A stretch of DNA of 64,000 nucleotides from positions 22,570,001-22,634,000 of the forward strand of contig OZ076409.1 in assembly GCA_964187785.1 (NCBI GenBank), given 5' to 3'. A model generated the notes under the pieces. It saw only the letters and a program-made list of their open reading frames with translations. It did not search any database and was not told the DNA's origin. The translations under genes and the position numbers were made by a program. The DNA comes from Amphiscolops sp. MND2022 (taxonomy: Eukaryota). Numbering within the stretch: position 1 is the stretch's first letter; each line of letters begins with the position of its first letter. Positions 16,948-64,000 of this stretch are shown piece by piece.

Positions 16948-17169
16948 ATGTACAGAGAGTACATTTGTTTCTAGACTGTAATTGTTGTAAACTGTTTTGT
17001 ATTTATTTCATCTATTTGTTGGTTTGTTTGGGTGTGGCCTTGTTTTATTCGCCACTGAGTCTTCTTTATTGTATATAATTATTTCAAGTAACAAAATAAG
17101 TCAGAAAAGTCCCAAGTAGAAATTAAATGTCCACACGGACTAGTAGTAAAGGAAAAAGGGACTGCTAAT

Positions 17170-22260: not shown

Positions 22261-22261
22261 A

Positions 22262-29464: not shown

Positions 29465-30059
29465 TGTAACGACCGGCTAGCGACGCACATCTAGGAAATG
29501 GGACAAGGCCTAGGGTGCTTAAACAGGAGACCGTTGTCTTACTTTATCCCTAGGCACTAGTTTTTGATCCCAAAATGGTCTCCAAGGGGGACGTTTCTAC
29601 CGTCTAAGGAGGCTTCTCTAGTTAGAGCTCCGAGGCGACGTCCGGACACGCCCACAAGCCTGTAGAAACGAAACCTAGGTTCCTAACATACATTCCTGCC
29701 ACCTCCTACATACTTCCGAGGTCCAAAAGTGTGTCTAACTGAAATACATTATATTTGGGGAATAAGTTCTAAAATACAGATCTAGTAGATCAAACATCAT
29801 CCAAATAACCCTGTCTTTTTGGTGTCAGCTGGCACAATTCCTGATTCTTTCGCCTTCTCGGGTGATGACATCTCTGACATTCACGTTCCCGGGTGGGGGT
29901 GGGGTCTTCTAGGTGTTTTTTTGCCGTTATTTTGCTTCCTCTACGGTTTTCGTATCTGCCGGGTTGGCCATCTTGAATGTGCTTGCTTGATACCGCACAT
30001 TTCGAATTTTTGATCGAAATTTTCAAGAACTTCTGCAACGTCCCTTGCCTGACGTTACA
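29465..30059 (-). repeat. 5' LTR of element C (595 bp)
   Basis: TGTAAC...GTTACA; lacks ~135 bp that are present in the other copy (~25163-25296). Confidence 0.85.
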
Positions 30060-40260: not shown

Positions 40261-40630
40261 TACCTCCAGTGGACCCAATACGACAACACGGATATCCTAC
40301 AAGCACCCGTTATTGTAGTTTTATGTTGTCCTGCGAACCTTGACTCCCATGCAGTAATCACGTGTCACGTCATTAGAGAATACGGACACGAAGCGATTTT
40401 CAGACAACTGCCCGCTATTGGTAAAGCCTTGCATTTGCCTCGATCCCCAAAGGCACGCGCCATGGGACAACGACTTCGTTCTCTTGTTTACAAGAGCCTC
40501 TTACAAATATCTGCTACTGCATGATTTTCTCCATCTATATCTAGTTGGTTTAGCTAAAAGGCTCCCGAAGGGTAACATCAAATCATTACACTTTCCAATC
40601 CATGGCTCAGAAGATTGGAGAGCATACTAC
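40261..40630 (+). pseudogene. Macrodomain (TARG1/OARD1/Poa1p-like) remnant in the 3' accessory region of element D
   Basis: My translation across one frameshift: TDILQAPVIVVLCCPANL...VIREYGHEAIFRQLPAIGKALHL...FVLLFTR...DFLHLYL...GNIKSLHFPIHG..EDW. It follows the TARG1 motif order. Confidence 0.55.
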
Positions 40631-43600: not shown

Positions 43601-44344
43601 GTGAAATGCGACTTTTATAGTGATTCGTTTTTTCAATCCACACAAACTAACCGAAATAGTTCCACAAAGTTTTACTAAGTTTTATGGTGTAAGAACTCAA
43701 CCAAAAAAGTTTTCCTTTTTCCTCGTAACATACAATATCGGGTGAGACTAAAGGGATCCCTTTTTAGTATTTTCGGCCTTGTGAGACTTTTTTCGATATA
43801 AAATTTTTCCCCAAAGGGTTCCCTTTTCAGTTTTTTTTTCGGAATTTTGAGACTTTTTCCGAAAACTTTTTTAATGACTTCAAAGGGCCCGCAGCAAGTT
43901 TTTTTGATGTTTTGCGACAAAAATATTGAGAAATTTGAAAACTGCGCTACTTGGGTACAACTTTCGAGTTTGTCGGGTACTGAAAGAAATACTTGACACT
44001 CAGAAGTACTTTTGCTATTTTTGACCCTTAGATATGGCGCCGACTTATGCCGTTCCCGGTTTTTCTACTTTGAACAGTGACATGCAAACGAAACAGCAGG
44101 TTTTCATTCATCTATTTCAACTGAACCAAAAAGGAATAAAGTAGGATGAGTTCGTTCGGTGGAATTTATGAAATGCAAGCAACAACGAACACGAAGACGC
44201 TCTAGCGGGGTTAGACGCAATCAAAGTTCAATGCAGAACCGATAAAAGGTGCTTGTTTTCTTCTGTGGCTTTCTCAGTTTATTAATCATTCAGTCATATA
44301 ATCAAAGGTTTATTTTACACTGAATTTATCAGGAACTGTCAGTC

Positions 44345-44948: not shown

Positions 44949-45115
44949 GTTAGGTTTTACACTGCTATCTGATGAATCATGCAAAATAGGTTAATAAATC
45001 ATGCAGATAAGTTTACGAAGTTTCAAGAAATATCTAAATTTCATTCTGAATAATCAGTAACACCTTTAACTACGTTTTTCATAGCCCACCTGCGGTAATT
45101 TTTCAAATTGTATGT

Positions 45116-46907
45116 TGTCGCAGGCTGCCGCCTGTGACGGCACAAGGATTACAACGACATCCGCAGATCAGGAAACGGCACCAGGTACTCTACCAATTTT
45201 CTGAAACTGGAACTTTTAAACTATGATGCTAACGTTTTGTAACAAAACACTCTCTTGTATTTTTGTTAATTCAGTTACATTGATTAGTCTGTTAAAAGTA
45301 GTACAATTGGAGTAATCCAAATCAAGTTATTGTATGGTTAAAATTGTTGAGATAATTGCAAGTAATAGCGACTGTAAGGCAGTATAGGAAACGTGTTCAA
45401 GTGACGTACGGCGCTGTACCGGTAGCGTCACTTGAGCACGTTACCTCAGCCAATCATATCGCAGTATGCAATCTCGTTTGTTGATGCTATTTAATTAATG
45501 GCCGAGTAAGGCCAGTTGCCGCGCTTTTAATATTCTCTTTTAATATACTGGTCAAATGGCCGGTTTCGTCCCCTCTGTTCAAAGCTGAAATAAGGTGGTA
45601 ATTTAACATGAGACGAGTTATGTTTGTTGTATTTGTACTTTCGCAATAGCCAGATCTTTTCCTATAACTGATGCTTTGTCTTAATACTCAACCTCTTGCT
45701 AGGCCTTCAAGGCCATATTTCATTAGTGCTTGCCTATTAATTAGCCGGCTATTTCCGGCCACTGAAGTTGTTGCGTTCTTTTGAAAAGTAAAGTAGCACA
45801 TGTATTTGGGGCTAATCGGTTGATTATCGTGTATGATTGTTAACATGATAATTGGCCGTATTGGGCCTAATAACATGATGTGCTTCACATTGTTGCAGAG
45901 CTTACTTCAGGCCACGTGGTGGCACGTGCCTGAAAGGAATGTGTGTAATGTTGTTTACATTCCTGATGAGTGCTAGGTCCTTTGATGGACAGAAGATCCA
46001 TTTGATGCACTAGTAAATATTTTGATGCCGCCTTTGATAGATAAACAATTGTAATTCTAGAATGCTAGGAATTTCCCAATCGAGCCGGAAAACTGAAGAT
46101 TGCAGTGTATTTCCCGCTAAAATCCTTAGTCCCGTGCCCCGATTGGAATGTTTGAATTCTATTCGTGAATTCCTTTTGTAAAAGTCATACCTCAGAGAGT
46201 ATATATACGAGTTTCACTCCTGAGGGACACACAAGTGTCATACGTTTGTACCAAACAGTTGACTCTTATTTTCCGAAAATAATAATTCAATATTTACCTC
46301 GGACTTTCTATCTAAATGCCTACCACAAGGAAACAGAAGAAAGCAAGAAAATCAAGAGAAGCAGAAATGTTATCAAACATTGAGAACTTAGACATAATGC
46401 TCGGAGGAGATCATTTTAATAGGAATTAAAGAAGTAAAAGTTTAAATAGTAACCAGGCCAGAAGACCTGGAAGTCTTTTTGGTGACGAATTTGAAAATGA
46501 GGATGAAGATAGGTCGTCTATCGCTAGAAATGATGAACTCGGTCCAAATGCCGAATTAGGACAAAACTCAGTTAGAGGTAGTTCTAATGCCGAGATCAAC
46601 AGACTGTCGAGTGAATTAAATTCCCGTATATCGCGGGAGATGGATGAGATGATGAATAGTGTCAGTGTTCAGATCCAAAGAGCTATAAGTGAGGCTATAA
46701 GCAATCAAGTACTTCCCCAGATTCAAAATGCCCTTATGGCCGATTCCGGACATATGACCAAAGAGAGATGGAACGTTCCGTCTGAGAGACCGGAAGGATA
46801 TTCTGAAGTTCTGCGTAATTCAGACTCTAGAAACAATTTGAAGAGTAAGACACTTGGTGACCGTCAGAAGGACGGATTCACATTATCGGACACCCATGCT
46901 TACGACA
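45116..46907 (+). repeat. 5' LTR of element B
   Basis: Near-identical to 59471-61262. Confidence 0.97.
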
Positions 46908-48037
46908 TGGTGACAGGAGAAAACGAATCTCCACTTGAAGTTCCTGAGTTTCTCACAGGACGAATGCCATCCACTAGTCATCTCAACAGATCCTGTGATG
47001 ACCTTCCGCTGCTCGACACGACGATCCCAGCACAAGAACGACCCGCTCTGGCATCAGAACAGGACCCCATCAACAGGCTAGCAGATGTTTTGACTAGTAT
47101 GCAGAACCGCACAACGGCCCAACAACTCACTATCCGCCCAGTCAACTCCAACACAATGACATTCGACGGAAAAAGTGAGAAGTTTGAGCTGTTTGAGGAT
47201 TTATTCCATACGATGATCAAGATGCAGCCTGAGATGACCGAACAAATGAAAATCAATCACTTCCATTCCTTGCTGCGAAAGAATGCACTCCAAACATTCA
47301 GAAACATCAGCAACGCCAACAGACAAACTCTTGAGGATGTACTTGTCATTTTCAGACGAAAGTACGTCAAACCCGAATCTCAGGCAACTGCAAAACATAA
47401 ATGGCATCGCCTAGTCTTTGACCCTAACACGACCAAATTGCCAGACTTTCTTGAAGAGCTTAACCAAGGAGCAGAAAAAGCCTTCGGAGACAATGCCCAA
47501 AAAATGATCGACAGTCTCCTATACGCAAAACTGCCACCAAAGCTCAAAAGATCAGTCAACATGGCTAGACTAGAGAATGGCTCTTACGATGAAATTGTCG
47601 CTCATCTAGAACGAGAACTGGAACTGAATGCACTCGAAGAGTCTGACGACCTGCCTATAGCATCAATGACATCTTCGATTGGCAAGACAAAAACTGTTCC
47701 TTCCAATGTACAGATGAGTGATATAACGTGCAATTATTGCAAAGAAAAGGGCCATATGGTCAAAGATTGCGAGAAATTGAAGAAGAAAAAACAAAAAGAT
47801 GCCGAACAAGGCAAACAGACTCAGAAAAAGACGTACCCGGAGTGTGGCACTTGTGGTAAAAAGAACCACCCGGAAGAAAGATGTTGGCAAGGTGCTGGTG
47901 CACATCTCAAACCCAAACGCACCAGACCAGATGACGCCAATGACGGTAAACCCAACTCAAAGGCGCAGAAACCACAAAACAAATCAACACCTTCCAACTC
48001 ACAGACCTCATCTTCCAATGATGAGTCAAAAAACTAA
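46316..48037 (+). CDS. gag: gag of element B (573 codons from the ATG in the LTR; premature TAA at 46427-46429 in this copy)
   Basis: ATG 46316 is in frame with ORF 46640-48037; the 3' LTR has GAA at the stop position; knuckles CNYCKEKGHMVKDC and CGTCGKKNHPEERC. Confidence 0.92.
46908..46919 (+). promoter_or_regulatory. Primer-binding site of B (TGGTGACAGGAG, tRNA-Leu-like)
   Basis: Directly after the LTR-terminal CA; one mismatch to the familiar Leu-type PBS TGGTGTCAGGAG. Confidence 0.75.
48028..48034 (+). promoter_or_regulatory. -1 ribosomal frameshift slippery site A AAA AAC joining gag to pol
   Basis: X XXY YYZ heptamer immediately before the gag stop; the -1 frame is open from 48028 into pol. 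Confidence 0.8.
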
Positions 48038-51000
48038 CTTCGCCACGACTCCAATACAACCAACTAATATCTGTCCGACAATACATCAGATCGGACCCTC
48101 CAACGCAAATTTTTCACCAATACAATCAACAATTGATGGGCTATCCTTCTGTTGTCTGGCAGCAGCAGATGGAAAAAGCTACCATTATTACCTATAATAA
48201 TACCCATTTGTTCCAAAAACCAATTCCTGTATGGGACCCTGATTACACATCCGCTTTCAATAGCCGATTCAGGCCCATTCCCTTGGTAGACAACTACAAC
48301 CCTACCTACATAGATCCTGACTATGGACGAGATCCCTATTGGGATACCGAACTTTACAACCAGGATTTGTTACAATTCCAATACGTTATTGATGATATCG
48401 AACTCTATAACAGATCAGTCCATGACAATCCACCAATCACCCATAACAAGAAAACCAGAGCATTGATTGAAACATGGCAGATGAACGATGGTACAAGCCA
48501 TCCGGTGTTCCCAAACCCCTTAGGGATCGAGACCTCAGACAAACCAGAAGAAACAATACCACAGTCACTACTTGACGAAAGTCAGTTCCAAAACATCCTT
48601 ATTACCAGAGAAGGTGAACCAGACTGTATACCCCTGTCTACCAACATAAACTTGAAATGCAAGAAACGCATGCTATATTTCCCTATGGACTTTGGGGAAT
48701 TGACCATTGATGGACTTATCGACACTGGTGCCTTATCCAGTGCAATCCCCGAAATGGACCTCCGGAAAATTAGACTCCTTTCACCACAATCAGTTATCCG
48801 AGAAGGTCCGCCTCCGAACTTCCAAATCATGGTCGCTAATGGGCAACTGGAAACTCCTAAGAGTACCATAGAGCTGAAATTCGAAGTTGGTGACATTGAG
48901 TTCCACGAAATTTTCATAGTAATGGAACATCTGACAGGACCAATCATAGGACTAATGTTCCTCCAGCGAAATCATACAGTTCTGGACATGAGGCAAGGAA
49001 TACTGAACTTTCCGTTTTTTTCGATGCAGCTCAAAACAGCTGACCATAAATACTCAAATGTACTTGAACCAATTTTGAACCCTACCGAAATCACAATCCC
49101 GCCAAATGACAGAGTCCTAATTAGGACTAATTCCCTATTATACCCTGAAAACACGGTCACAGGGATCTTACAGCCAAGTGACCTTCTCCATGAAGAAGGT
49201 GACATCACATTCTGCCCAGCCTTGGTCACCTTGAACGACGGCAATATAATGATACCAGTGAATAACTTCACAGATCACCCTTATAAACTTAAAAAGGGAC
49301 TCCACATTGCTAGTTTCTCAGTCATGACGCCAGAACAAATGAAATACGTCAAACCGGTAGACCCGGCATCGACCTGGCATTTGTTGCAAAACGACGAAGA
49401 GCAAGCAGCCCATTACGTCAGTAGCCTGATCAAGACGAACAGAAATCCACAAAACTCCGAAAATTACTGGTTCCCAACTCCAGAAAACCCTGGAAATCCT
49501 GAGGAACACACACCCATACAAAAACGAATCCTACGTGAGTTACAGGCCTTACAGGACCTGGAGACACTCGACCCCACCACAGACGCAGAATCGCGTGCAA
49601 AATTCTTAGAAAACTTTGACTGGAAAGATTCCACCCTTACTCCTGAAGAGAAGGAGAAAATAGAAGAATTGTTAGTGGAATTCCACGACATCTTTGCACG
49701 ACACCGATTCGATATAGGCATGAACGAAGACTTCAAGGTGAAACTGACACCTAAAGACAATTCCCCAGCCTATAGTCAAAGTCTTCCAGCTCCTATCAAC
49801 TTGAAGGAGGACATCCTAGTCGAATTAGCCATGTTACACAAATATGGCATCATCACCACTCTACCGTTCTCAAAGTATGCAAGCCCAATATTCGCCCAAA
49901 AGAAACCAAACGGGAAACTACGACTTTTGGTTGACTTGAGAAAAATCAACAACCTCATCTCGGATGATTATATAAACAATAATCACCCTGTTAGCACTTT
50001 GGTTGATGCTGCCCAACACTTGGCAGGCAAAAAACTATTCTGTAAATTAGACTGTTCGCAGGCATACCATTGCCTACCAATGGCCGACCAACGTTCAATA
50101 GAAATGTTGGCTTTCAATTTTGCCACTCGCACATTCGCCTACAGACGTTTGGCACAAGGCCTTAGCCGGTCACTATCCGCATTCTCGAGTTTTATGAGAG
50201 AATACCTCGACAAAGTCATCAAAGCGGATCAGTGTGCCCAGTACGTGGACGATATAGGCATTGCAGCAAACGACGCTGACCACCTCATAGCTAACCTGAG
50301 AGCTACATTCAAATGCAATCAGGAAGCAGGCCTTAAATTGACAATGCACAAATGTCACTTTGGTGCCAAAGAAATTGATTTTCTCGGAAGAACTATTACC
50401 CCGCAAGGCGTCAAACCCCAGAAACAGAACGTGCAAAACTTTCTGGAAAAGACCAAATTCCCGAAGTCGAAAAAGGCTTTACAACGATATTTGGGATTCC
50501 TAAATTACTACAGGAATTATATCCCAAGACTCTCCGAACGCCTTGCTCCATTCTACAAGATGCTAAAAAGTGACGAAAAAGTCCTAGTATCGAAAGAATT
50601 AGTCCAACAATTCGAAGAAATCAATAAAGCACTAGACAAATGTTGCGACTTGGCCCTACAACAACCCATCCCGAACAAGCAAATTGCATTAATGACAGAT
50701 GCAAGTTTTGGCGCAGCAGGATACGCAGTACTGATAGAAGATGATCCGAACCAGAAATTTACTTCCCTTCGGAAATCCTATGCACCGGTGGCATATGCCT
50801 CTAAAACCTTCACCCCAGCCCAGATAAAGATGTCGATATATGCCAAAGAGTTTCTTGCAATTTATTTTGCATTCAAAGAATTTGGACATATATTCTGGGG
50901 TGCACCCAAACCGGTCATTATCCTCACAGACAACAAAGCTGTGACGAGATTTTTTCAAACAAAAATAATACCCCCAACCCTGTGGAATGCATGTGATTAT

Positions 51001-53241
51001 GTAGTTCAGTTCAATTTTGTCATAGCACATATCCCGGGGGCACAGAACACAGCAGCTGACTATTTGTCCCGATTGGAGGCAGATCCGAAGGATAAATTAG
51101 TCATGAAAATCCGCGAAGACGTACAAACTTTACCCATTGAGATAAATGTTCAATCTGCGGGGGTATCACAGGAAGAACAAATTTTCTATACGAATGACGA
51201 CAACGAAACAGAAGAACAGTTTTGGGCAAGAAAAGAAGCAATCAGGAAAAATCCAGCAATTGACGAGCCCACTGTTACCATAGAAACTCTGTCAACCAAT
51301 CTATTCAAACAACAACCAGACATTCAAGTCCGATTAAAGAAAACAAACCAGATAATCATCGAGCAGTCCAAAGATGCAGTATTGCAACAATTGAAGGCAA
51401 AGCTCCTTCATGAAGACTATTCAGAAAACATACTGCAACAGGATGCCCGATATAGACATTATGCAAATAATCTGGAACGAATTGTACTAAAGGACGAAAT
51501 CCTGACAAGGCAATATTTTGATGAAACAGGGAATGTTAAATACCATCAAATTTTGCTCCCGCAACACCTACTTCGGGAATTGCTCCATTCCCTTCACGGG
51601 ACAGCGCATAAACATCCCGGGATTTCAAAAATGTTGCAGGAAATCAGACAAAGGTATTATTACCCTAACATGGCAAAATATGTCAAAAAGTGGGTAGAAG
51701 GGTGTGAACAATGTGCAAAGGACAAACGAGTCCCAAACGCAACAATCACGCCTGAACTACTTAACTTGCCGGAATGGGACCTTGGACCCGAAGACGCCAT
51801 GCAAATCGACTTATTGCCGAATCTTCCCCCAAGTGGAGGATATGAAAATATTTTAACCGCAATTGATGTCTTCTCTCGATACTTGTTTGCTTATCCTCTT
51901 ACGGACGCATCAGCGATCAATGTAGCTAAAGCAATCATAGATATTATGACCAAACATTCTTACCTACCGACGACGCTAATTACGGATAAAGGAACTGCCT
52001 TTACTTCCACGATCATTGCGGAAATTACACAGATTTTAGGCATTACCCTAAAATGTGCAACGACGAAACACCCGCAAACTATCGGAAAATTAGAGCGAAC
52101 CCATGCCTCATTGAAAATGAACCTGAAAATGGCATGTGGGGAATATCGCCGACAATGGCATAAATATTTGCCTTTAGCAGTTCTCAATCATAACACTAGT
52201 TATCATGCCAGTATCGGATGCGAACCCACAAGAGTGTTCCATGGGAGAATCCCATACAACATCTTGGATCACAAACTTGGAATGAATCCAAATGACCCAA
52301 TCCATCCGACTACTGAATTCGCAGAAGAAATCCAGAACCGGACCAAACTCCTTATTGACAAAACAAAGCAGAACATCATGCAGTCATATATCAAATATAA
52401 GGAGTATTACGACCGAAAAGCAAAAGCCGCCCCACTCAAAGAGGGCGATTACTGTTTTGTATTACAGCCGAAAGCGGATCATCAAGGATCAAAAATTCCA
52501 TTCAAGGATTATCGCTGGGTTGGACCATTTATAGTCCAGAAGATCTTACCTAATGAGAATTACATCGTCCGCAGGCTTAATACAAATAAAACGCAGATCT
52601 TGCATCGAATTCGTCTCAAAAAGTTTGTTCCAAATCAGCCACTTGAGGACAATTTCCGAGAACAGCGTCTACAGCCGGATGACGAAATAATCATTCCGCA
52701 AGACGACTTGTATGTAATAACGTGGGAAACAAACTTTGGCGAACAGCTAGATACACGAGGCAGCGAGCCTATTCCAGCCAGCTCGACGAATGACGAACAG
52801 CCGAGTACGGCAGAAGCGAATGCAAGTGACGCAAGCGAGAATGAAGTGGATTATGTAATCACGAGTGACGAATCAAATCTTACCGATCGTGCGTCGCACA
52901 GCCGGGATGAACGATTGAATGATGACGTCACTGAAAGAAATGAAGCTACTGCAGTGACAGAAAATAACAAATCTGATTGGCCGAATCCGGCCGTTTTCCC
53001 GAAAAACCAAGAAAATTCTTTGCCGAATACGGCAGATGGACTGGAAAAGGATGAAATTTTTTCAGAAAGAAATTCAATGAATGAAAACGATGCACAAAAC
53101 TCTCCAAAAAGGGGGGATGATATTATCGTGCCCGAAATATCCGAAAACGATGCTAGAAATGAAAGTCTGAGCCCTAGAGGAGGAAAATATAATCTCAGGC
53201 CTAACCCTAACCCAAACTACTCAGAAGACTTCAGATACTAA
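48028..53241 (+). CDS. pol: pol of element B, intact (protease, dUTPase-like linker, RT, RNase H, integrase with GPF motif, acidic tail)
   Basis: LIDTGA; YVDD; TDAS; HGTAHKHPG...CEQC; QIDL/TDKG/ERTH; WVGPF; 1702-aa ORF. Confidence 0.97.
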   Translation, partial: KKLTSPRLQYNQLISVRQYIRSDPPTQIFHQYNQQLMGYPSVVWQQQMEKATIITYNNTHLFQKPIPVWDPDYTSAFNSRFRPIPLVDNYNPTYIDPDYGRDPYWDTELYNQDLLQFQYVIDDIELYNRSVHDNPPITHNKKTRALIETWQMNDGTSHPVFPNPLGIETSDKPEETIPQSLLDESQFQNILITREGEPDCIPLSTNINLKCKKRMLYFPMDFGELTIDGLIDTGALSSAIPEMDLRKIRLLSPQSVIREGPPPNFQIMVANGQLETPKSTIELKFEVGDIEFHEIFIVMEHLTGPIIGLMFLQRNHTVLDMRQGILNFPFFSMQLKTADHKYSNVLEPILNPTEITIPPNDRVLIRTNSLLYPENTVTGILQPSDLLHEEGDITFCPALVTLNDGNIMIPVNNFTDHPYKLKKGLHIASFSVMTPEQMKYVKPVDPASTWHLLQNDEEQAAHYVSSLIKTNRNPQNSENYWFPTPENPGNPEEHTPIQKRILRELQALQDLETLDPTTDAESRAKFLENFDWKDSTLTPEEKEKIEELLVEFHDIFARHRFDIGMNEDFKVKLTPKDNSPAYSQSLPAPINLKEDILVELAMLHKYGIITTLPFSKYASPIFAQKKPNGKLRLLVDLRKINNLISDDYINNNHPVSTLVDAAQHLAGKKLFCKLDCSQAYHCLPMADQRSIEMLAFNFATRTFAYRRLAQGLSRSLSAFSSFMREYLDKVIKADQCAQYVDDIGIAANDADHLIANLRATFKCNQEAGLKLTMHKCHFGAKEIDFLGRTITPQGVKPQKQNVQNFLEKTKFPKSKKALQRYLGFLNYYRNYIPRLSERLAPFYKMLKSDEKVLVSKELVQQFEEINKALDKCCDLALQQPIPNKQIALMTDASFGAAGYAVLIEDDPNQKFTSLRKSYAPVAYASKTFTPAQIKMSIYAKEFLAIYFAFKEFGHIFWGAPKPVIILTDNKAVTRFFQTKIIPPTLWNACDYVVQFNFVIAHIPGAQNTAADYLSRLEADPKDKLVMKIREDVQTLPIEINVQSAGVSQEEQIFYTNDDNETEEQFWARKEAIRKNPAIDEPTVTIETLSTNLFKQQPDIQVRLKKTNQIIIEQSKDAVLQQLKAKLLHEDYSENILQQDARYRHYANNLERIVLKDEILTRQYFDETGNVKYHQILLPQHLLRELLHSLHGTAHKHPGISKMLQEIRQRYYYPNMAKYVKKWVEGCEQCAKDKRVPNATITPELLNLPEWDLGPEDAMQIDLLPNLPPSGGYENILTAIDVFSRYLFAYPLTDASAINVAKAIIDIMTKHSYLPTTLITDKGTAFTSTIIAEITQILGITLKCATTKHPQTIGKLERTHASLKMNLKMACGEYRRQWHKYLPLAVLNHNTSYHASIGCEPTRVFHGRIPYNILDHKLGMNPNDPIHPTTEFAEEIQNRTKLLIDKTKQNIMQSYIKYKEYYDRKAKAAPLKEGDYCFVLQPKADHQGSKIPFKDYRWVGPFIVQKILPNENYIVRRLNTNKTQILHRIRLKKFVPNQPLEDNFREQRLQPDDEIIIPQDDLYVITWETNFGEQLDTRGSEPIPASSTNDEQPSTAEANASDASENEVDYVITSDESNLTDRASHSRDERLNDDVTERNEATAVTENNKSDWPNPAVFPKNQENSLPNTADGLEKDEIFSERNSMNENDAQNSPKRGDDIIVPEISENDARNESLSPRGGKYNLRPNPNPNYSEDFRY

Positions 53242-53472
53242 GAAAGACTGAATTTAGGTCAGGAAATGAGCCCCGAACCTATTTTCTTTTCTTTAACGTT
53301 TTCTTTTTGTCCCATAGAAGCAAATTTTTTGAACAAATGATGGGACGTGCAAGAGACCCTTTTTCAAATAAATAAACACGGAGCCATAGAAATAGAATCA
53401 CAACTAAAATATACAAAAGAACAAATCAACAACAATTGCAGTCTCGAGATGTACATATATACATATGCACAA

Positions 53473-56400
53473 TTAGTCTTTAGAAGTGCTGGTAGAAGCC
53501 TCCATCACAACAGAAGATGATCTGGACCGAGACTGGCTCCTTTCCATACGTTTTCGCTTAGTGCCACTGGGCAATTTAACAGCTGGGGCATCTCGTACAG
53601 AAGGAACGCTGGCCACAGTAACATCTGCAGCACCCACTTCTGCGGAAGCAACCGAGCGATGAGAAGATATGAAGGATTTGTAAATCGAAGAACGCCCGAA
53701 GTTATCCACATACGTCCAGGGATCATAATCAGAGCAGAGTCCAGATTGCCCGAACGAAGAGGAGAGTAAGGAAAACTTCTCGAGATTAACATCAGTACAG
53801 CAAAGGGCCAAGGATTCGGAAACCTCAGATAAGTAGCTTTGACAAGGCAGAACTACATCAGATACCCGAGTCTGGAGGCCTTGTGTGTCCACCTTCCCCA
53901 TGGTCACAGCTGGATAACGGGGACTGACAGAAGTTAAACACAAACAGCATAGTTTGAAAAGGTAACGAATATGCTCATGCGTCTGGAGGAAATCAAGACC
54001 CATGAGGAACTCAATGAGGTCAATTGGCTCATCAGTGAAGCTCGGGTCGGAAGAATGGTAAGTTCGGAGATAATCCAACAACGCCAGATACTCATCCCTG
54101 CATGCAGCCTCATTTAACCCAGTGACCCAGGAACGCAACTGGAATGTGGTGTACAAGACACTGAAATGACGGAGGGCCACATCGGTGGGGCGTTTCATCA
54201 TAATATAAGGGTCGAAAGCAGCCAACCCCTTGATAAGATCGGAGCTAAGGCCAGTGTGTTGTAAGACAGCTCCCAGGAGAAATTCAATATATTTCTTGGC
54301 ACTGGTCACGAAGTCGGTCTTGGCTGCGTCAGCCGTTTTATCAATGGCAGCCTTACTTGACTTCTTGTTAAAATGTAATCCTGCAGCTTTCAGATTACTA
54401 GCGCTAGCCACCTTGTTGGTCATCTTAAGTCTGACCAAGAACTCGTCGTCCTGCATGAACTTCCCGTCGCTAGTCCTAAAATCCAGCAGGAGAAACCAAG
54501 CACTCTCGAGGGGAATGGTGTCAGGTTGGTACACCCGAAAGCAGAGTCGACTGATGAACTTGCAAACCTCCCCACAGAGATAGAAGGTTGCATCCCGTCT
54601 ATGGGAGAGATTGACTGAGAAGCTGGTCACATCTAAAACATAAATCAAAAGGGTCCATATACGGACATGTGACTGAAACATGTCAAAGCATAGTTTACTT
54701 ACAGTCATTTACGAGACGTTGAAAAATTCCAGCCTGACGGCGAAGAACTCGTCTGATATCAAGGACCACTCAAAGCTCTGGACCTTGTTGTGCACTCCCT
54801 GGTTCTCCTGTCGGTGAGAATGGACGGTCAAATAACGAAGAACTGATTTCCACCGCTTGAGTAAATCCCGACACAAATCGGGGAGCTTGTCCACTTCCAG
54901 TCTGCAGGTGGTAACAGCCTAAATACAATGTAATTGCAAAACATATAGTATGGTTCACGTCCTATCCACTGCGTAAGATGCTACTATCTGAATTGAGCAA
55001 AGTATACTAACTCGGGTGAGTTCAGGCGATTCTAGGACCCAGTCTTCTGTGACAGAACCGCCCAGGGAAACGAGGAGGCACTGGAGGACAGAGAACATAT
55101 CAATCCGGCCAAACACGCTGTATGTGTACTTGTGCATCAAGAGCCGCAGATCAAGTGTTTCAAAACGGAAACAGCTCTGAATGCCTCGTGAATAGGAAGG
55201 ATGCTGGTCAATTGCTCGTATGTAGTCAACTGAGCAGCCTGAACAGGCTACTATATCGGGGTCAGTTGACACCACTGATAACAACCGCGACAAAGATCCC
55301 AATTCGCCTGTGAGATCGGCAGCAGGAAGCGCACTCCGGCAGATGAAAACTCTACAGAGTTTAGTCTCCCTCCAATAGCGCAAGAACATCAGGCGATCTG
55401 TCCCACTGTCCTCGAATTCAATGGAGAAATGCTGTGCTGAGTTCACTTGTTCAGCTATATCTTCCATCACACAATTGAAGATGTGCTGGAATATAGCCTG
55501 AAATGGAAAGGATTGTATTTACTAGGTGCCACAATTTCACTTATGTTAGCTCACGTGTGTTTATTTATGTATGTATATGCGCGTGTATATATGCTTGTCA
55601 ATATGCTATCATGTGACTAGGTAACGAACAAGGCACACAAGTTATACTTACTGTGATCCTTTCCTCACTCCAATCGAAATCGTGGAAAGCTGCCTGGTAA
55701 TCAGTGAAAGACCCCACTCTTGACCATAGATTCCGAAGGACGGTTAAATCTCCCTGTCTTTGAATGAAGTCTCCGATGAGGCAGATCTGGGTTTTAGCCC
55801 GTGACTGGGGGGTTACCAAGGCAGTAGTGCTTCCCTTGAGGTAGTCCTCATAAAAGGGAAACCTTTTTCCCACGTCTACAAGTTCGGTGTGGATGAACTT
55901 CCGGAGTTCTTGTGCCAACTCAACTTTGCTTAGGATCTTCCCATTCCTCCCTCTGACCCTGTGTTGGACTTTTCCTGTGATGGGGTCGACGGTCTTGAGG
56001 TGCTCATAGCGCCAACGTTGATCTTTTCGAAGGTGTTTCTCTGTCCTGTGATGCCTTAGGATCTCGACAACCCCTTTCGTCTTGATTGAGAAATTTTTCT
56101 TACACATATGGCACCACACCATATGCGGATTGTGAAGGGGGTCTGCAGGACCAGATATAAAGGACCGAGTCCACCCAATCTTGGAGAAGAACTCCTCCCG
56201 CATTGGTACTCCTCGTCTCTGGGTGGTTTTGGCCTTGGAGGTCCTTTTGACAAGTTTTCTACTTCGAGGCTTTTGAGTCGAGGACTGCTCCCGCACTTCT
56301 GACAGTGTGACATCCAGACTGCTTTGTCCGGTGGATTCGTCTCCTCTGCCACCTGACCCAAGTGGTATAGACGTGTGTTGTTCAGGTCTGACGTCCTTGT

Positions 56401-57827
56401 TCGATGTCTTCCTAAAACTGTCAGCTATCAGGGCCATTTCTCCAGAACTATCAGTATCGTCCAGCATTGATATTCCTCGGGTCTCGAGCGACGTACTAAA
56501 GTCCCCACTGGCTTCAGAATCCTGTCCGGGATCGGTAATGAACCCTTCGGAACTGGTACTTCCAACTTGCTGGGGTCTAGGAGTCTGAGCGCGGCTTCGG
56601 AATTGCTTGGTTCTAGAGGGTGCCGTGGCTGGTCTCCCTCTCACTGCACCTATGACCATTTGCTCCATTGTTGTACAGGTCATGCTGATTGCCTCGTCCG
56701 TCAGGACTCTCAACAGGTGGTAAATCTGGGGCTCAGTGAAAGCCACTGTCCGGTGACCTACAGGGAAAATGTAAGGATCTTCAGTTTCGAAATACTGTTT
56801 TAAGATGGCTCTGCTACGCCCAGACAGCTCCCTTAAAGGTTCTTCTTGTTGCGAGGTCCCGGCCGCCGGTGTCCTGAGTGGGTTGTTGATGTAATCATCA
56901 AGTTCAGTATCGCTGCCCTTCTCGGAATCGAGCTCTGAACACCCTGGAATTGCACCATGAAGAGGGGGAAGGTCATCAATCCCGGATGCTGCTCCCGAGG
57001 TATCCATATCACTCGTTAGTTCAGTCTCTCGGGTTTTCCCTTTTGGTAATGGAGGGGGGCCACTGATTATGGAAGAAGAATCTTCTTCGCCTTGTAAAGA
57101 AGATACACCAGGAACCCCTCTTGACGTGTCTATACCAACTTGTAGTTCTGGAAATCCAGAGGAAGTGGTAGGGGCAATTTGTAGAAGCGACTCGAGCTGA
57201 GACAAACTCGGCGATTCTCCTGGGTCCTGGCTAATCTGCTTGGGAGTACTAGTTTTCCTGGGGTCAACTGGTGGGGGAGTGCACAGACCCTCCGTATTGG
57301 AAGCCTCTACAAGTTTGTCTACATCTGTTCTCATTACTGGCGGTGACACAGCAATTTGAGTTGCCTCCATCCGTTGAACCATCTCAGTTGCATAAGTAGT
57401 GACATCCACGTTGCTATCAGTACTTAGAGGGGATTCAATCATGTTCTGGCCCTGGAAAGTTACGGCTCTATTGTGAGGAAGAAGAGGTGGGAGAGGTCCC
57501 AGCCCAAGATTAGCAGTCGATTCAGGCAATTGACCCAACGTTTGATCAGACTGAGTAAGGTTGTTCTCCACGGTGTTGGTTGGAGTTTGAGCTTCATTTA
57601 TACTCTGATTCTCTAAACAGAAAGAGATGAAATTTGGCGGTGAGCTTCCTTGAAAAGAATCCATTTTGCCGCATTAGAAAACTTCCGGAAGTGTTTGAAA
57701 ATTTGAATAAAACGTGTTATCACGCGTTTACTAATGGGAACAGGAAGCATGTTGTGAACGAATTTAACCCTGATCAAGTTAAATTTTAGTTCGGAATAAA
57801 AACAAACCAACCTTCAGATGAAGACAT
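53473..57827 (-). CDS. Antisense 5-exon gene of element B (~1,280 aa): low-complexity N-terminus, BED-type zinc finger, degenerate hAT-transposase-like body; exons 57827-57812, 57612-55652, 55497-55012, 54918-54703, 54632-53473
   Basis: All four introns are GT-AG and phase-compatible if one T is restored in the T-run near 54722-54728. WCHMCKKNF...ILRHHRTEKH finger; EDIAEQVNSAQHFSIEFEDSG...MFLRYW resembles the first catalytic strand region of hAT transposases. Exon 1 is the least certain. Confidence 0.85.
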
Positions 57828-58692
57828 CCTTGAACTGAATCGAATGAAGGAACGAGTCCTTGTACGACTGAAGAGGCTGATGGATATGGCCGAAACCGGC
57901 TGGAGGAGAAGGATCGAGGGTCGCTTTGGGGTGAAGAATCGGCTAAGAAGTGTCGTTTGCGGGAAATAACTATAAGTTGAGAAGAGACAAACAGAAGATA
58001 ATTTGAATTAAAATGGAATTGGAATTGGGTAGAAGAATTGAAGAAATTAGAAAGTTGGAGTTCGTGGCTGAAGATTATTACCAGACTAATATTACGGGAT
58101 TATTTACATATTTATTCTGTACATGGAGTCTGCCAGCGAAATGTACAAAGATTACTTCATTATTTACAACTTATGGAATTATTGGCCGATTACGGCCGTT
58201 TACCCCATTTCGGTTTACCATCTTGTTCCATTTCGTTTGTTATCCTAATTGGGATTTCCGTTATTATAGTTACTCAAATTGTTATTTCCGATATTTTGAA
58301 TTATTTCGATTTATTATTTTCGCCATTTTAGTTATTCAAAATTATTATTTTCCGCCATCTTTACTATTCATTTTTCAAATTTATCGAAGCTCAAATTTGA
58401 TTGGCTAACGCCATTTTAGTAGACTTCACCTGACGCATGCCGTTAATTACTATCAAGCTCGATGTTAATTACCCACTTGAAAGCGGAATTATTTGTTGTT
58501 GTCAACTTAACGCCTCTCTGACTACCCACTTGAGAAGACGAAGATGGGGGGTTCCTACCTAAGTTTCAAAGGATTAACCGCCGCTGGAAATTCCATTCAT
58601 GAAAGTTTACGACAGATAAGGTTGAATAACCTAAGATTCTACCGCCTAAACGAGTCCACCGGGAAATTACCCGACTCGTCTTAAGGTGGGAA

Positions 58693-59559
58693 TTGGTAAA
58701 CTTATTTGAATTTGAATCTCCTCACCGTTCAGTCGACTCACAAGTTTCAAAAATTGCAAAGAAAATCATAATGTCTAAATACAACTTGGCAAGAAAATTA
58801 TTTGACTTCGACGGAGATAGCTCGGATGAGTCTGAAGCTTCAGTGATCTACATATCAAGTAGCGACGACGAACTGTCAGAAGGATGGGAGACGGACTGTT
58901 CCACGGACACGGAGCAGCTCATCGCGAGAATAGAGAAAGAAGTGACTTCGAGCCCTATGCTGATAGGAGGCAGAATCATGACCACGGACGACTTCGAAGA
59001 GGAACACATGGTAGCTGGTCCAAGCAGCTCACAGCCGCACAAGGACACTACCCCCAAAATGGACCAAAGATACTTCGACCATGAGAGATGCTATGCCCCA
59101 CCCAAGAGAGTGGAGAAGACGCGAATTGAGCTATGCAAGACGCTGCTGCCAGTACCGGAGTCTCCAATGTCGCCGCCGGAACACGAGAAAGGACCAAGCA
59201 ATGACACTCCCTTAGTACAATCCTTTGCAAGCGGATTTCATGCCTCTTATCATGTGCAATATACGCAACCCTACGAAGACATCAGCAGAGTGCGCTATAC
59301 AGGATGTCTGGTATGTGGCAGGTCCGTAGATGACATAAAGGACGAGAAAGTCAACTGGTATATGGAGAGGTCAACACCGCGGGACGAACCGGAGCACATT
59401 ACGAGATTAAGGCGCGAAGCTTATATCAACGGGCTGAACGCGGGCAGTCTGCTTTTCGTCGCTCCTGCAGTGTCGCAGGCTGCCGCCTGTGACGGCACAA
59501 GGATTACAACGACATCCGCAGATCAGGAAACGGCACCAGGTACTCTACCAATTTTCTGA
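58693..59559 (+). CDS. Sense accessory ORF of element B (unknown function; acidic, SIM-like VIYISSSDDE, CLVC motif), ending 89 nt inside the 3' LTR
   Basis: 288-codon open frame conserved with A; first ATG at 58771; no env-like hydrophobic signal or transmembrane segment visible. Confidence 0.82.
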   Translation: MVNLFEFESPHRSVDSQVSKIAKKIIMSKYNLARKLFDFDGDSSDESEASVIYISSSDDELSEGWETDCSTDTEQLIARIEKEVTSSPMLIGGRIMTTDDFEEEHMVAGPSSSQPHKDTTPKMDQRYFDHERCYAPPKRVEKTRIELCKTLLPVPESPMSPPEHEKGPSNDTPLVQSFASGFHASYHVQYTQPYEDISRVRYTGCLVCGRSVDDIKDEKVNWYMERSTPRDEPEHITRLRREAYINGLNAGSLLFVAPAVSQAAACDGTRITTTSADQETAPGTLPIF

Positions 59560-61262
59560 AACTGGAACTTTTAAACTATGATGCTAACGTTTTGTAACAA
59601 AACACTCTCTTGTATTTTTGTTAATTCAGTTACATTGATTAGTCTGTTAAAAGTAGTACAATTGGAGTAATCCAAATCAAGTTATTGTATGGTTAAAATT
59701 GTTGAGATAATTGCAAGTAATAGCGACTGTAAGGCAGTATAGGAAACGTGTTCAAGTGACGTACGGCGCTGTACCGGTAGCGTCACTTGAGCACGTTACC
59801 TCAGCCAATCATATCGCAGTATGCAATCTCGTTTGTTGATGCTATTTAATTAATGGCCGAGTAAGGCCAGTTGCCGCGCTTTTAATATTCTCTTTTAATA
59901 TACTGGTCAAATGGCCGGTTTCGTCCCCTCTGTTCAAAGCTGAAATAAGGTGGTAATTTAACATGAGACGAGTTATGTTTGTTGTATTTGTACTTTCGCA
60001 ATAGCCAGATCTTTTCCTATAACTGATGCTTTGTCTTAATACTCAACCTCTTGCTAGGCCTTCAAGGCCATATTTCATTAGTGCTTGCCTATTAATTAGC
60101 CGGCTATTTCCGGCCACTGAAGTTGTTGCGTTCTTTTGAAAAGTAAAGTAGCACATGTATTTGGGGCTAATCGGTTGATTAACGTGTATGATTGTTAACA
60201 TGATAATTGGCCGTATTGGGCCTAATAACATAATGTGCTTCACATTGTTGCAGAGCTTACTTCAGGCCACGTGGTGGCACGTGCCTGAAAGGAATGTGTG
60301 TAATGTTGTTTACATTCCTGATGAGTGCTAGGTCCTTTGATGGACAGAAGATCCATTTGATGCACTAGTAAATATTTTGATGCCGCCTTTGATAGATAAA
60401 CAATTGTAATTCTAGAATGCTAGGAATTTCCCAATCGAGCCGGAAAACTGAAGATTGCAGTGTATTTCCCGCTAAAATCCTTAGTCCCGTGCCCCGATTG
60501 GAATGTTTGAATTCTATTCGTGAATTCCTTTTGTAAAAGTCATACCTCAGAGAGTATATATACGAGTTTCACTCCTGAGGGACACACAAGTGTAATACGT
60601 TTGTACCAAACAGTTGACTCTTATTTTCCGAAAATAATAATTCAATATTTACCTCGGACTTTCTATCTAAATGCCTACCACAAGGAAACAGAAGAAAGCA
60701 AGAAAATCAAGAGAAGCAGAAATGTTATCAAACATTGAGAACTTAGACATAATGCTCGGAGGAGATCATTTTAATAGGAATGAAAGAAGTAAAAGTTTAA
60801 ATAGTAACCAGGCCAGAAGACCTGGAAGTCTTTTTGGTGACGATTTTGAAAATGAGGATGAAGATAGGTCGTCTATCGCTAGAAATGATGAACTCGGTCC
60901 AAATGCCGAATTAGGACAAAACTCAGTTAGAGGTAGTTCTAATGCCGAGATCAACAGACTGTCGAGTGAATTAAATTCCCGTATATCGCGGGAGATGGAT
61001 GAGATGATGAATAGTGTCAGTGTTCAGATCCAAAGAGCTATAAGTGAGGCTATAAGCAATCAAGTACTTCCCCAGATTCAAAATGCCCTTATGGCCGATT
61101 CCGGACATATGACCAAAGAGAGATGGAACGTTCCGTCTGAGAGACCGGAAGGATATTCTGAAGTTCTGCGTAATTCAGACTCTAGAAACAATTTGAAGAG
61201 TAAGACACTTGGTGACCGTCAGAAGGACGGATTCACATTATCGGACACCCGTGCTTACGACA
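59471..61262 (+). repeat. 3' LTR of element B, containing an open gag 5' fragment (from 60671)
   Basis: Near-identical to 45116-46907; followed by the TSD. Confidence 0.97.
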
Positions 61263-61566
61263 TATGTATTTTTCTCGTTGTTACCTGGAGGTGTTTTTGC
61301 ACAATCGTCTTTACAACTGCAGACTGAAGAGTTTTTCCACCTCCGGTTTTGCTTTTATTGGGCCAAAAGAGTTAGTAATCGCAACCATGTAATGTAATAA
61401 TTTCTCAGATTGATCTGAGATTACGCTTTTTTTTATAAACAAAATTTACATCCAACGCTTCAAAGAACGACGAGATTTCCTACTACGCTTTGATTTTGCT
61501 GACCTCGGCTGTATGTTTCTGGTAACTCGTGTAACTGTAATCCTTGCTGTGTTCTTGAACCTTTAG

Positions 61567-61981
61567 GCAGCGCTAGTTGTCATCACCACTGCTTGAACAA
61601 AACCAGTATTGATTTATTCGATCGAGCTATCTTGTCAAGCGGAGCAGTCAACCCGATTTGGGGATACGCGACCGAAAAAGACCAAAAAAGGAGAATCGCC
61701 TTTATCCTTAAACGGCTTGGCTGTCCAGAAACTGACAACCAAGAAGATATTGTCGAGTTCCTTTTGTCTTTGGATTCGTCGAAGTTCGAAAACTTGGGCT
61801 TGGCTACGGAAGAGATCATGAAGGTGATACCATTGCCAATGACGTCATTCATGGAAGCCCCTAACTCGGTGGTACCCTTGAAGAAAAAACCGATTCTGAT
61901 TGGTTTAACGAGAGAGGAGGGACTTTTATTCGTTCAACTTCTCTATCCGTCTAAATCGAATGACAGCACAGCGCTGACAAA
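61567..61981 (+). CDS. Host carboxylesterase-family gene, next exon (3' end approximate)
   Basis: TTTAG|GC acceptor restores GNSAG-SASCHHHCLNKTSIDLFDRAILSSG; contains LGCP and the catalytic-Glu motif GLTREEG; probable donor GTTAGT at 61982. Confidence 0.85.
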
Positions 61982-64000
61982 GTTAGTACATTTCAAATTG
62001 ATTTTTGCTAATTACCTCATTCTATCACACGTTACAAAAACTGGAATTTCAATTTTTTTTGGATGAATCGAAATTAAAAGTCTATTCAAGAATTTCTGTA
62101 ATTTCGCAATTTTCGCAATTAACGTTATTTCAAATCATGACTGAGAAAGAGCATGCTGCTCATCAATTCCATGTCCTTGAGAACCCGAGCAAGTTAAAAC
62201 TATTGTCCTATATTATGAACCTAATTGCTCATATTATAATAGGAAATTATTGTCATATTCGTAATAAACACTTCAATTTTTAAAATTACAAAAAAATACT
62301 TCTCTGTTCTCCCATATTTATATCAGACTAATATTCGCAACAAATGATTTATTACCTTTCTGTGACATACGCTGTAATTTTACTGGAAGGGAATCAAAAT
62401 GTGATTACCGACTGAAGACCTGATGAAGAGAAATCTCAAGAAATTGCTTTTCACGCTCTTTGCTTTTGATGTTCCTTCTTTTTGACTAGCAAAATGAATA
62501 GAAACCAAAACATACGCAATAAGCCCTGTACAAATTTGTGCGCGTCTTGTAAAAACGAATATGAAACGCACTTTTGCTCAACCAGTATTCTGACGAACTT
62601 TTCACTGCATATGACGCAATTTAGCATAAAAGACAAGTGTCGAAAAAGTGGAATTCTTGGTTCGGATCATGGATGGGCATAATTCGCGGGTTTATATCGC
62701 AAAATTCGCAGAAAATTAGTCTGAATTGCGCGCTAATAGTCGGACACTATCAAAATTCGCCGAAAATACATCTTCGAGAATTATTGAAAACAATGTTTCA
62801 CGGAAGACAAGGTTCCGTTTTCCTTTAGTGTAAAATATATCATGAATTAAACTACAAAAACATCTTTTGCTACTTTCTGCTGTCAAATTTATTTTGTCAT
62901 TGGTGAGTATTTTGTTGTAAAAACAGAAAAGTCTTTCCCATGCAGCCGAATGAATGAATGAATATTTAATTCATATTTGTTACCCCGTAGGGTTTACAAA
63001 ACTCAAACGTTCAAATTTACAGCGAACGCAGTCCGTGACCAATTTACAATACATACTGAGGTGCCTTAATTTTACGGTGCTTGTCGAGTTCGTCAGTTGG
63101 TCAAGTTTCAGCAGACTGGAGTTTCGCTGATAGCACTTGCATAGGTATTTTGCACGTATTTTGCACGTAAGTAAAACGTGGTACTAATCAGAATTCACTT
63201 GATTTTTACAGAGTGGACAATGCGTCTCTTTTACCCCTGTAAATTTTCCCTGACCTCTGTTATAGTCAGAGCAGCACATCGATATCTACTCAACTCAATT
63301 TTGTCTTTTTTCTTTAGGGTAAAAACATCTGGCTCTAATCGATATTTGTATTTATATGCAGCATACACTCTGCAGAGTGAGTTATTTTTAATTGATGTGA
63401 TTCACTGTTGTATTAACACATCCTGCAGCTTGTTCTTGGTATAATCTTTAAAGATAGCTTCATTACCATTTCCGACAAAATGATAAGCGCCGGGAATTCC
63501 CTATTCAATCAGTATTGTTTGAACATAAGGCAATAATTTTTCTGTATGGGAAGTTTTTTGTAGGTACTTGTAACTTAGGGACGAGAGTTTGTTTTTGTCG
63601 TCGCTCAACCTTTTCCGAAAACCCAAAATTCAGAGCTAAATATGATAATTTTTTCTTTCAGTTCTGCCTAATTCTCAGAAAATCATCGACTTTGGAAAAC
63701 TGTTCCGAACGTTTAAAAGCGTTCGCAAAATTTCCGGAATTGCAAGTTCATGACCAGTTGTTTCAGCTCTCAATTTGAATAATAGTTTTCTTGCTTTGTC
63801 AACGCTGTGTTTCATTGTTAGTTGAAAGGTATTGTTGTTTTTGAAATATACCCCTAAATACCTAAAACTGTCAATTTTTCTATTGGGCTGTTTTTTATAA
63901 ACATCACTGACTCTTTACGAACTTTTCCCCTGGAGCAGATCATATATATTGCTTTGGAACAGTTTATTCGAATGTTAAAATTACTGCAATATTGATATTC

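Follow-up and report, generated by a model that had tools for sequence, protein, structure and literature searches.

Can the long terminal repeat (LTR) retrotransposon of an animal carry, on the strand opposite to its own genomic RNA, a spliced gene that belongs to the element itself, and from where would such a gene have come? The question arises from a stretch of 64,000 nt of Amphiscolops sp. MND2022 (GCA_964187785.1, contig OZ076409.1, positions 22,570,001 to 22,634,000 of the forward strand), which is called the window in the following and whose first letter is position 1 of all coordinates. It holds a complete Ty3/Gypsy element (element B) and a diverged relative (element A), both of which bear a large antisense gene between pol and the 3′ LTR. 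An earlier note on this DNA had described a five-exon gene that was captured from a hAT-type DNA transposase and kept under selection by the retroelement. We find that the gene is a conserved component of a family with thousands of genomic copies and that it is under purifying selection. It is probably integral, as an accessory gene, to a large and recently active Ty3/Gypsy family, and would encode a nuclear DNA-binding protein that would act in trans and not as a transposase; its descent from a hAT transposase is a separate matter, on which the evidence is divided.

A multi-exon gene on the minus strand of element B

In the interval from pol to the 3′ LTR, the minus strand of B contains four coding exons bounded by GT/AG. 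Exon 1 (57664-55652) contributes 671 codons, which lie within an open frame of 691 aa, and ends at a GTAAGT donor. Intron 1 (55651-55498; 154 nt, GTAAGT...TTTCAG), the length of which ranges from 69 to 170 nt across subfamilies, separates it from exon 2 (55497-55012, 486 nt). Intron 2 (55011-54919, GTTAGT...ATTTAG), with donor and acceptor conserved among copies, is followed by exon 3 (54918-54703), by intron 3 (54702-54633, GTAAGT...TTTTAG, with its acceptor AG at 54634-54633 in phase 1) and by exon 4 (54632-53476), whose stop codon occupies 53473-53475. Exon 3 measures 217 nt in intact siblings and 216 nt in B; this copy is one base short, therefore shifts frame and meets an in-frame TAA at 54711-54709. 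In the intact sibling L009 the four exons sum to 3,873 nt, corresponding to 1,291 codons. Two relatives from the database, P0127 and P0206, are devoid of intron 3 and read through from exon 3 into exon 4 precisely as the splice predicts, which confirms this junction independently. A polyadenylation signal was not observed after the stop of the gene: the 230 nt before pol contain no AATAAA.

Upstream of the ATG we found a conserved block (57665-57827, minus strand) containing ATGTCTTC..AG directly followed by GTTGGT, then CACGTG and the palindromic ACTTCCGGAAG, which ends in AG 17 nt before the main ATG. About 160 nt of this block are kept in all 11 aligned copies despite saturated synonymous sites in the coding part. 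The block could be a promoter, a 5′ mini-exon with its intron, or both. With the mini-exon spliced as drawn, translation from the upstream ATG would end at a conserved TAA 7 codons on, and 57664 would remain the start of the main frame. The five exons described earlier are hence reduced to four with clear borders; at the place of the fifth, at the 5′ end, there is a conserved pair of donor- and acceptor-like sites, which did not suffice to confirm it.

Element A carries a homologue on its opposite strand (12952-16947, plus strand), with exon 1 at 12952-14785, exon 2 at 14870-15356 (487 nt), exon 3 at 15425-15641 (217 nt) and exon 4 at 15797-16947. The encoded proteins of A and B are 30-44% identical, and the three introns interrupt equal aligned codons in both, in phases 0, 0 and 1, as the earlier note had stated. 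The small size differences of the internal exons (486/487 and 216/217 nt) are due to frameshifts in exon 2 of A and exon 3 of B. The copy in A has decayed further: exon 1 contains a stop and a change of frame, exon 2 the frameshift just mentioned, and the exon-3 acceptor reads GG in place of AG. A self-comparison of the window detected no nucleotide similarity between A and B anywhere in the antisense gene. That their intron sequences are unrelated is therefore true and, taken alone, says little. Introns have also been gained or lost within the family, as an extra intron of about 70-100 nt is found in exon 3 of the copies L022-L028 (four subfamily groups), where it lies at a codon boundary between K or R and V (equivalent to about 54780 in the window); the B group and A do not have it.

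The gene is present in thousands of copies, and the copies examined conserve its splice sites

A search of the 1.07-Gb genome with the last 216 residues of exon 1 as query gave 7,717 first-look candidates, the best 150 of which were scored. All of these 150 matched at E ≤ 2.2e-111 and are 73-100% identical to the query; for 117 the surrounding open frame is at least 600 aa long. The antisense-gene family thus comprises thousands of copies in this genome. We fetched 20 copies that were chosen for an open exon 1 and that together cover the range of identities. In every one of them the four exons come in order and are followed by pol on the opposite strand and preceded by another reading frame, ORF3 (open reading frame 3, see below).

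The splice sites are retained throughout this set. The GT donor of exon 1 lies at most 3 nt from the end of homology in 20/20 copies, and the exon-4 acceptor AG, in phase 1, is likewise found in 20/20. The exon-2 donor GT and the exon-3 acceptor AG are each present in 19/20, the misses being copies in which homology breaks off early. Exon 2 gave a gapless match of 486 nt in 13 copies, with all six subfamilies represented, and exons 1, 2 and 4 are uninterrupted in 13 of the 20 copies, a number to be read with the choice for open exon 1 in mind.

Relatives are also numerous among library proteins. A HMMER search of the full library with exon 4 retrieved 441 relatives at E ≤ 0.001, and the best 150 are all 79-418 aa long. 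Matches to the other exons were unnamed reading-frame calls without Pfam domains and mostly of single-exon length; a full-length spliced homologue was not present among library proteins longer than 1,210 aa.

The gene is under purifying selection

Substitution rates were determined as Nei-Gojobori estimates from one copy of each of eight groups, taking eight of the 20 loci; the estimates for exons 2 and 4 rest on the six of these copies that gave a single uninterrupted match. Only one pair, L009 and L010, is unsaturated at synonymous sites (dS about 0.2, where dN and dS denote nonsynonymous and synonymous substitutions per site). Its dN/dS amounts to 0.18 for exon 1, 0.03 for exon 2 and 0.12 for exon 4. 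In the remaining pairs the uncorrected synonymous proportion pS is 0.70-0.87, which is saturated or nearly so, with nonsynonymous proportions pN of 0.07-0.39 and pN/pS of 0.08-0.50; exon 4 gave a pN/pS of 0.13-0.41. For comparison, dN/dS in pol is 0.05-0.18. The antisense gene is under purifying selection of a strength as in pol. The earlier suggestion that the gene is kept under selection as part of the retroelement is borne out by these ratios, none of which is near 1 in the unsaturated pair, together with the same place and orientation in A, B and 20/20 copies and the retained splice sites.

The antisense gene behaves as a swappable cassette

Sliding-window identities of eight copies against B revealed that the element is composed of modules with differing history. 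Copy L014 is 96-99% identical to B in pol and 92-98% in ORF3 at the nucleotide level, and 56-78% in the antisense gene. L010 displays the reverse pattern: 91-95% in the antisense gene, 79-91% in pol and 58-67% in ORF3. The same discordance is seen in synonymous divergence. In pol, dS is 0.06 for L009-L014, 0.15 for L009-L028 and 1.19 for L009-L010; the antisense gene ranks the pairs oppositely, with L009-L010 as the only close pair. Identity switches at about 53.0-53.5 kb and 57.5-58.0 kb, where the antisense gene has its borders. Antisense gene, pol and ORF3 reassort as separate modules, the antisense gene behaving as a swappable cassette, and the pol backbones are much younger than the accessory alleles they carry. 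Recombination between co-packaged RNAs during reverse transcription is established for retroelements and is the simplest reading of this mosaicism. Balancing or diversifying selection of some form has probably kept the accessory alleles.

ORF3 (58771-59559, plus strand) is a sense accessory gene of 262 aa located between the antisense gene and the 3′ LTR, with its last 89 nt inside the LTR. An open reading frame of 256-262 aa with the ORF3 N-terminus was found in 17 of 21 copies (pN/pS 0.18-0.35), and its alleles reassort independently of both pol and the antisense gene. Conserved motifs are SVIYISS(S/D)(D/E)E, W(E/D)xD(C/W)STDTE and CLVCG; the first, SVIYISSSDDE in B, resembles a SUMO-interaction motif. 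No Pfam family was matched by ORF3. The spacer between the antisense gene and ORF3 contains 3.5 copies of a 32-bp tandem repeat (58263-58370) with three CGCCAT(T/C)TT motifs, presumably YY1-like. In the bin at 58.0-58.5 kb L014, L023 and L028 are 85-92% identical to B, though the neighbouring bins differ.

Features of the encoded protein

Exon 1 codes for about 480 low-complexity N-terminal residues with conserved islands, such as MDSFQGS..NFISF.LE at the N-terminus and one around ELSGRSRAILKQYF. Next come basic stretches and one C2H2 finger of the form CX2C-X16-H-X5-H, the residues C63, C66, H83 and H89 of which are invariant (alignment A6). Conservation is highest in the approximately 130 residues that follow the finger. 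The C2H2 nature of the finger was rightly recognized in the earlier note; for its BED character we find a single zf-BED match, at a Pfam E value of 4.1, in one of 37 exon-1/2 proteins, which is also the sole hAT-related Pfam row.

Two AlphaFold models were considered. Exon 4 is predicted as an all-helical domain (mean pLDDT, the predicted local distance difference test, 81.9; 204 residues at 90 or above) with a disordered basic and serine-rich tail. The second model is that of P0098, a database reading frame that reads through intron 1 and holds exons 1 and 2. It is poor overall (mean pLDDT 46), and the first half of exon 2 reaches a pLDDT of 70-90 and is modelled as three antiparallel strands, a beta-meander, followed by a helix. 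The spliced message would code for about 1,291 residues, with a folded region of about 750 residues in which, according to the models, the beta-meander and helix come first and the large all-helical domain last.

Is the gene derived from a hAT transposase?

Sequence comparisons speak against such an origin. Pfam scans of 71 sequences (4 exon reading frames of B, 30 exon-4 and 37 exon-1/2 sequences) returned no hAT-family match at E ≤ 0.1. Neither Hermes nor any other hAT chain came up when PDB sequences were searched with profiles of exon 4, exon 2 and the finger region; the best rows were Taq polymerase (E 1.4) and Nup42 (E 0.55). We then compared the same regions by hhalign with a profile built from six full-length hAT transposases of the same genome and obtained probabilities of 1.5% for exon 2, 0.4% for exon 4 and 0.4% for the finger region; the best local match of the latter, at that 0.4%, pairs its finger with the hAT finger. 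Looser local and global hhalign settings left the expected hAT motif regions unaligned. Foldseek, run with the exon-4 model against the PDB, gave nothing at E ≤ 0.001. Neither a conserved D-D-E triad nor the hATC domain (PF05699) was found in the antisense protein, and within the 5.5 kb examined there is no convincing inverted pair around the gene that could represent terminal inverted repeats (TIRs). An ESM-Atlas search with exon 2 gave no usable match. Taken together these results weigh against descent from a hAT transposase, and the segments that had been said to track ZNF862 and hAT transposases are left without statistical support from Pfam or hhalign; the capture of a class II transposase gene, as inferred in the earlier note, is not shown by these comparisons.

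Further searches were directed at hAT-derived families. DUF4371 (PF14291) was not matched in Pfam scans of the B exon reading frames and exon-1/2 proteins, and a DUF4371 search of the genome itself gave no match, a negative that is uninformative since the control genomes were silent too. No family numbered PF27xxx appeared in any Pfam scan; PF27073 and PF27046 are presumably absent from the Pfam copy used. Motifs picked by eye (TGE, W-K-S/N, FDP, a CLCLT helix and their hAT-like order) were rejected: the R of 'RW' is unconserved, the spacing differs and no program supports them. Canonical hAT elements are plentiful in this genome, with at least 150 matches over the hATC cut-off from 2,215 candidates and several open frames of 597-697 aa.

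Three leads point in the other direction. Structure comparison picked the Hermes transposase with both independent AlphaFold models, at low Z scores of 5.2 and 4.2, the fold search with P0098 being of little weight: the Hermes chain ranked first of 48,161 for one model and provided the only long alignment near the top for the other, which covers a different part of the protein. For the finger region, the ten best named ESM-Atlas clusters are all ZBED5, FAM200, GTF2IRD2 or DUF4371, at a sub-threshold score of 0.82, and neighbours at this score carry the RNase-like families of FAM200, ZBED5 and GTF2IRD2 or DUF4371. Scores in the range of 0.82 are also attained by shuffled proteins in a third of cases, which again lowers the case for hAT. 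Each lead is below the reliability level of its tool; what weight they have comes from the agreement of three methods, applied to three parts of the protein, on a single superfamily whose layout also has these parts in this order. With hAT transposases and their derivatives (Hermes; proteins of the ZBED, FAM200, GTF2IRD2 and ZNF862 type) the antisense protein shares an N-terminal CX2C...H...H finger and about 750 folded residues arranged as a beta-meander and then a large helical region. It differs from them in having no significant sequence or profile similarity, no hATC, no conserved D-D-E, no TIRs and no 8-bp target-site duplication (TSD), and in that its carrier is a retrotransposon, whereas they are found in DNA transposons or as host genes. 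We consider the chances to be about even that the folded region is a very diverged, catalytically dead transposase of the hAT type.

Alternative explanations

The gene may be a real, selected accessory gene with no transposase in its ancestry, for example a captured host zinc-finger gene, in which case the likeness to Hermes and to the ESM clusters would be generic, due to a large helical domain and a zinc finger. We regard this as possible, if rather unlikely: Hermes was first of all chains for one model and, for an independent one, alone gave a long alignment among the top rows, a third method leads to hAT-derived families from yet another part of the protein, and the succession of finger, beta-meander and large helical region matches the hAT layout. 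An independent hAT-like DNA transposon nested in single Gypsy copies would fit the location of the gene in a long non-pol region and an AT-rich inverted pair of 26 nt with 77% complementarity that brackets it (53402-53427 and 58308-58333). The right arm of this pair lies inside the tandem repeat, though, and the 5.5 kb under examination contain 21 pairs of this kind. No 8-bp TSD surrounds the gene, the only TSD being the 5-bp one of the LTR element. Position, orientation and neighbours are equal in A, B and 20/20 copies even as synonymous sites are saturated across subfamilies, and the canonical hAT elements of the genome are unrelated to the gene by sequence. A nested transposon is very improbable on these grounds, and the corresponding signs, TIRs with an 8-bp TSD, which the earlier note had named as an indication of nesting, are absent.

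Alternatively, a transduced or selfish gene might ride on the retrotransposon, without a role in its replication, and be selected because it benefits itself or the host. Purifying selection alone does not tell who benefits, and the gene is a self-contained cassette that reassorts with its own conserved upstream block. Yet it is found in every lineage sampled, even in the distant A with a pol that is 62-78% identical to that of B, most copies are open in a family of thousands, and a dispensable passenger of 4.4 kb would soon be lost from a retroelement. None of 22 copies is without the gene, but these were found using the gene as query and gene-less elements were not looked for. All in all, a mere passenger appears improbable. 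The notion of chance open frames or a dead relic draws on the state of the window copies: since both carry frameshifts, both are broken, A heavily and B once, which also counts against an integral accessory gene. We nevertheless give it next to no credence, as dN/dS is 0.03-0.18 and splice sites are conserved, a gapless exon of 486 nt occurs in all six subfamilies despite saturated synonymous sites, 441 library proteins are related at E ≤ 0.001 and the fold of exon 4 is confidently predicted. Transcription, a promoter and splicing in vivo are deduced from conservation. On balance we favour the integral accessory gene.

Element B and its surroundings in the window

Element B (45116-61263, plus strand; 16.1 kb) was delimited by its LTRs, TSD, primer-binding site (PBS) and the Pfam domains of pol. 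The 5′ LTR (45116-46908; 1793 bp, TG...CA) and the 3′ LTR (59471-61263) are 99.67% identical in the window self-comparison, and the TSD TATGT stands on both sides (45111-45115 and 61264-61268). A PBS-like TGGTGACAGG, starting with TGG, follows directly after the 5′ LTR at 46909. The gag frame (46966-48037, start codon putative) contains a zinc knuckle and a DUF1759-like part with weak Pfam support (DUF1759 2.7e-05, zf-CCHC 0.0027). The pol gene is an open frame of 1738 aa (48025-53241) that matches RVT_1 (1.5e-22), RT_RNaseH (2.9e-16), Integrase_H2C2 (2.3e-16) and rve (1.2e-10); its Pfam domains are arranged as protease, reverse transcriptase (RT), RNase H and integrase, which is the Ty3/Gypsy order. 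Element B is a complete, young Ty3/Gypsy insertion, the near identity of the LTRs indicating that it is recent. Two open frames flanking it match the carboxylesterase profile PF00135: 44324-44953 (plus strand) at profile positions 6-193 (E 2.5e-55) and 61503-62066 (plus strand) at positions 193-342 (E 2.4e-12). As these are consecutive parts of the profile, B sits in an apparent intron of a host gene of the carboxylesterase type, in the same orientation.

Element A (9661-24887, minus strand) is the older, diverged relative, with LTRs at 9661-10974 and 23405-24887 for which the self-comparison gave identities of 96.0% and 87.5%. At the protein level its gag is 38% identical to that of B. A decayed counterpart of ORF3 lies at about 10966-11857 (minus strand). 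A third LTR element, C (about 30320-43703), is bounded by repeats at 30320-31166 and 42866-43703 that are 87% identical and contains an RT-RNase H frame at 36364-36951 (plus strand). No copy of the antisense gene was found in C (about 30.3-43.7 kb), the pol of which is 24% identical to that of B. Additional direct repeats of 88-93% identity were observed beside the outer LTR of A (24887-25546 and 29549-30058), with a 76% copy at 43088-43345; a further element may have left them as LTRs or solo LTRs.

Comparison with known antisense genes of retroelements

Antisense genes at this position are known from other kingdoms. Plant Ty3/Gypsy elements of the aORF-3R type (maize Grande with gene23, rice RIRE2, and Retand of Silene and other angiosperms) have an extra antisense gene in the interval from pol to the 3′ LTR, and most copies of a lineage carry it; Grande gene23 has its own promoter and a nuclear product, and the plant antisense proteins are predicted to bind DNA (PMC7264820, PMC11963269). 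Tandem-repeat arrays are reported for the pol-to-LTR region of plant Retand elements (PMC11963269), so that the plant elements resemble B in both the antisense gene and the repeats of this region. The plant genes are described as single open reading frames and introns are not mentioned (PMC7264820, PMC11963269), whereas the gene studied here has introns. It also differs in its animal host and in being accompanied by a second accessory frame in sense orientation. The TRP28 family (Transposase_28, PF04195) was not matched by Pfam in the 71 antisense-gene sequences, and the likeness to Retand is architectural only. In the fungus Botrytis cinerea, Boty-like Ty3/Gypsy elements are reported to possess brtn, likewise an extra gene in antisense orientation within the element (Zhao et al. 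2011, Virology 417:248; cited in PMC7264820). Origin and function of the antisense accessory genes of LTR retrotransposons are called open in PMC7264820.

Retroviruses offer a more distant parallel, with a minus-strand gene in the 3′ part of the retroelement and a nuclear regulatory product, as we propose it here. HBZ of human T-cell leukaemia virus type 1 (HTLV-1) is a basic leucine zipper (bZIP) protein with a spliced form. It is transcribed from the 3′ LTR, whereas the conserved block of our gene is located about 1.7 kb inside the element, and there is no sequence relation. HBZ and APH-2 of HTLV-2 have been drawn on as an analogy for the plant genes (PMC11963269).

A description of an antisense gene of this type in an animal Ty3/Gypsy element was not found in open-access papers and preprints, the scope of our literature search, which did not extend to Repbase, Dfam, GyDB or subscription journals. 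The combination had been thought undescribed; this has to be narrowed, as the architecture of an antisense gene between pol and the 3′ LTR is already known from plants and fungi (PMC7264820, PMC11963269). New are apparently the animal host, the size and multi-exon structure, the missing relation to TRP28, a possible transposase ancestry, the sense ORF3 and the modular reassortment.

Proposed role and significance

For an integral accessory gene the following course of events can be envisaged. Transcription would begin at an internal promoter that belongs to the gene and is situated within the conserved block before the ATG or upstream of it, and the transcript would be spliced; an internal promoter is suggested because this block lies so far inside the element. 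Introns that lie opposite to the genomic RNA strand are not removed from that RNA and are copied in each cycle. The three introns (four in some subfamilies) would persist whenever the element retrotransposes, since its genomic RNA is complementary to the transcript of the gene and does not contain them as introns, an established rule already invoked in the earlier note and one that fits our data. The product, consisting of a disordered N-terminal region, basic stretches similar to nuclear localization signals, the C2H2 finger and the folded region, would be a nuclear protein that binds DNA for the element. The conserved block and the basic stretches are no more than suggestive of an own promoter and a nuclear product. 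The protein may regulate transcription of the element or shield it from silencing, as has been proposed for the plant antisense genes and retroviral HBZ, with integration tethering as a second choice. We favour regulation or anti-silencing because Grande gene23, the Retand TRP28 proteins and HBZ are nuclear regulators and because the diversity of cassettes suggests a conflict or a specificity determinant. Activity as a transposase is not expected since no catalytic triad is conserved. Several anciently diverged cassette types would be maintained over long periods and recombined during reverse transcription.

A more far-reaching scenario, which we put forward tentatively and hold to be less than probable, is that an animal Ty3/Gypsy lineage took in a hAT transposase gene together with its introns, stripped it of catalysis and came to depend on it as a DNA-binding factor; cassettes and ORF3 versions would then be shuffled onto the fittest gag-pol as specificity or counter-defence modules against host silencing. 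If the hAT link is true, a class I element has recruited a class II enzyme as a cofactor, and no accessory gene of a retrotransposon would have been traced to a DNA transposon before this one.

Irrespective of its ancestry the family offers unusually good material: thousands of young copies, deeply diverged alleles under selection, conserved intron positions, one intron gain or loss and a structural lead to a DNA transposase. The reassortment of cassettes on a nearly identical pol resembles the swapping of env in retroviruses and points to the accessory genes rather than pol as the seat of the lineage-specific interaction with the host. A diversity of cassettes is what would be expected if they are specificity or counter-defence modules in conflict with host silencing.

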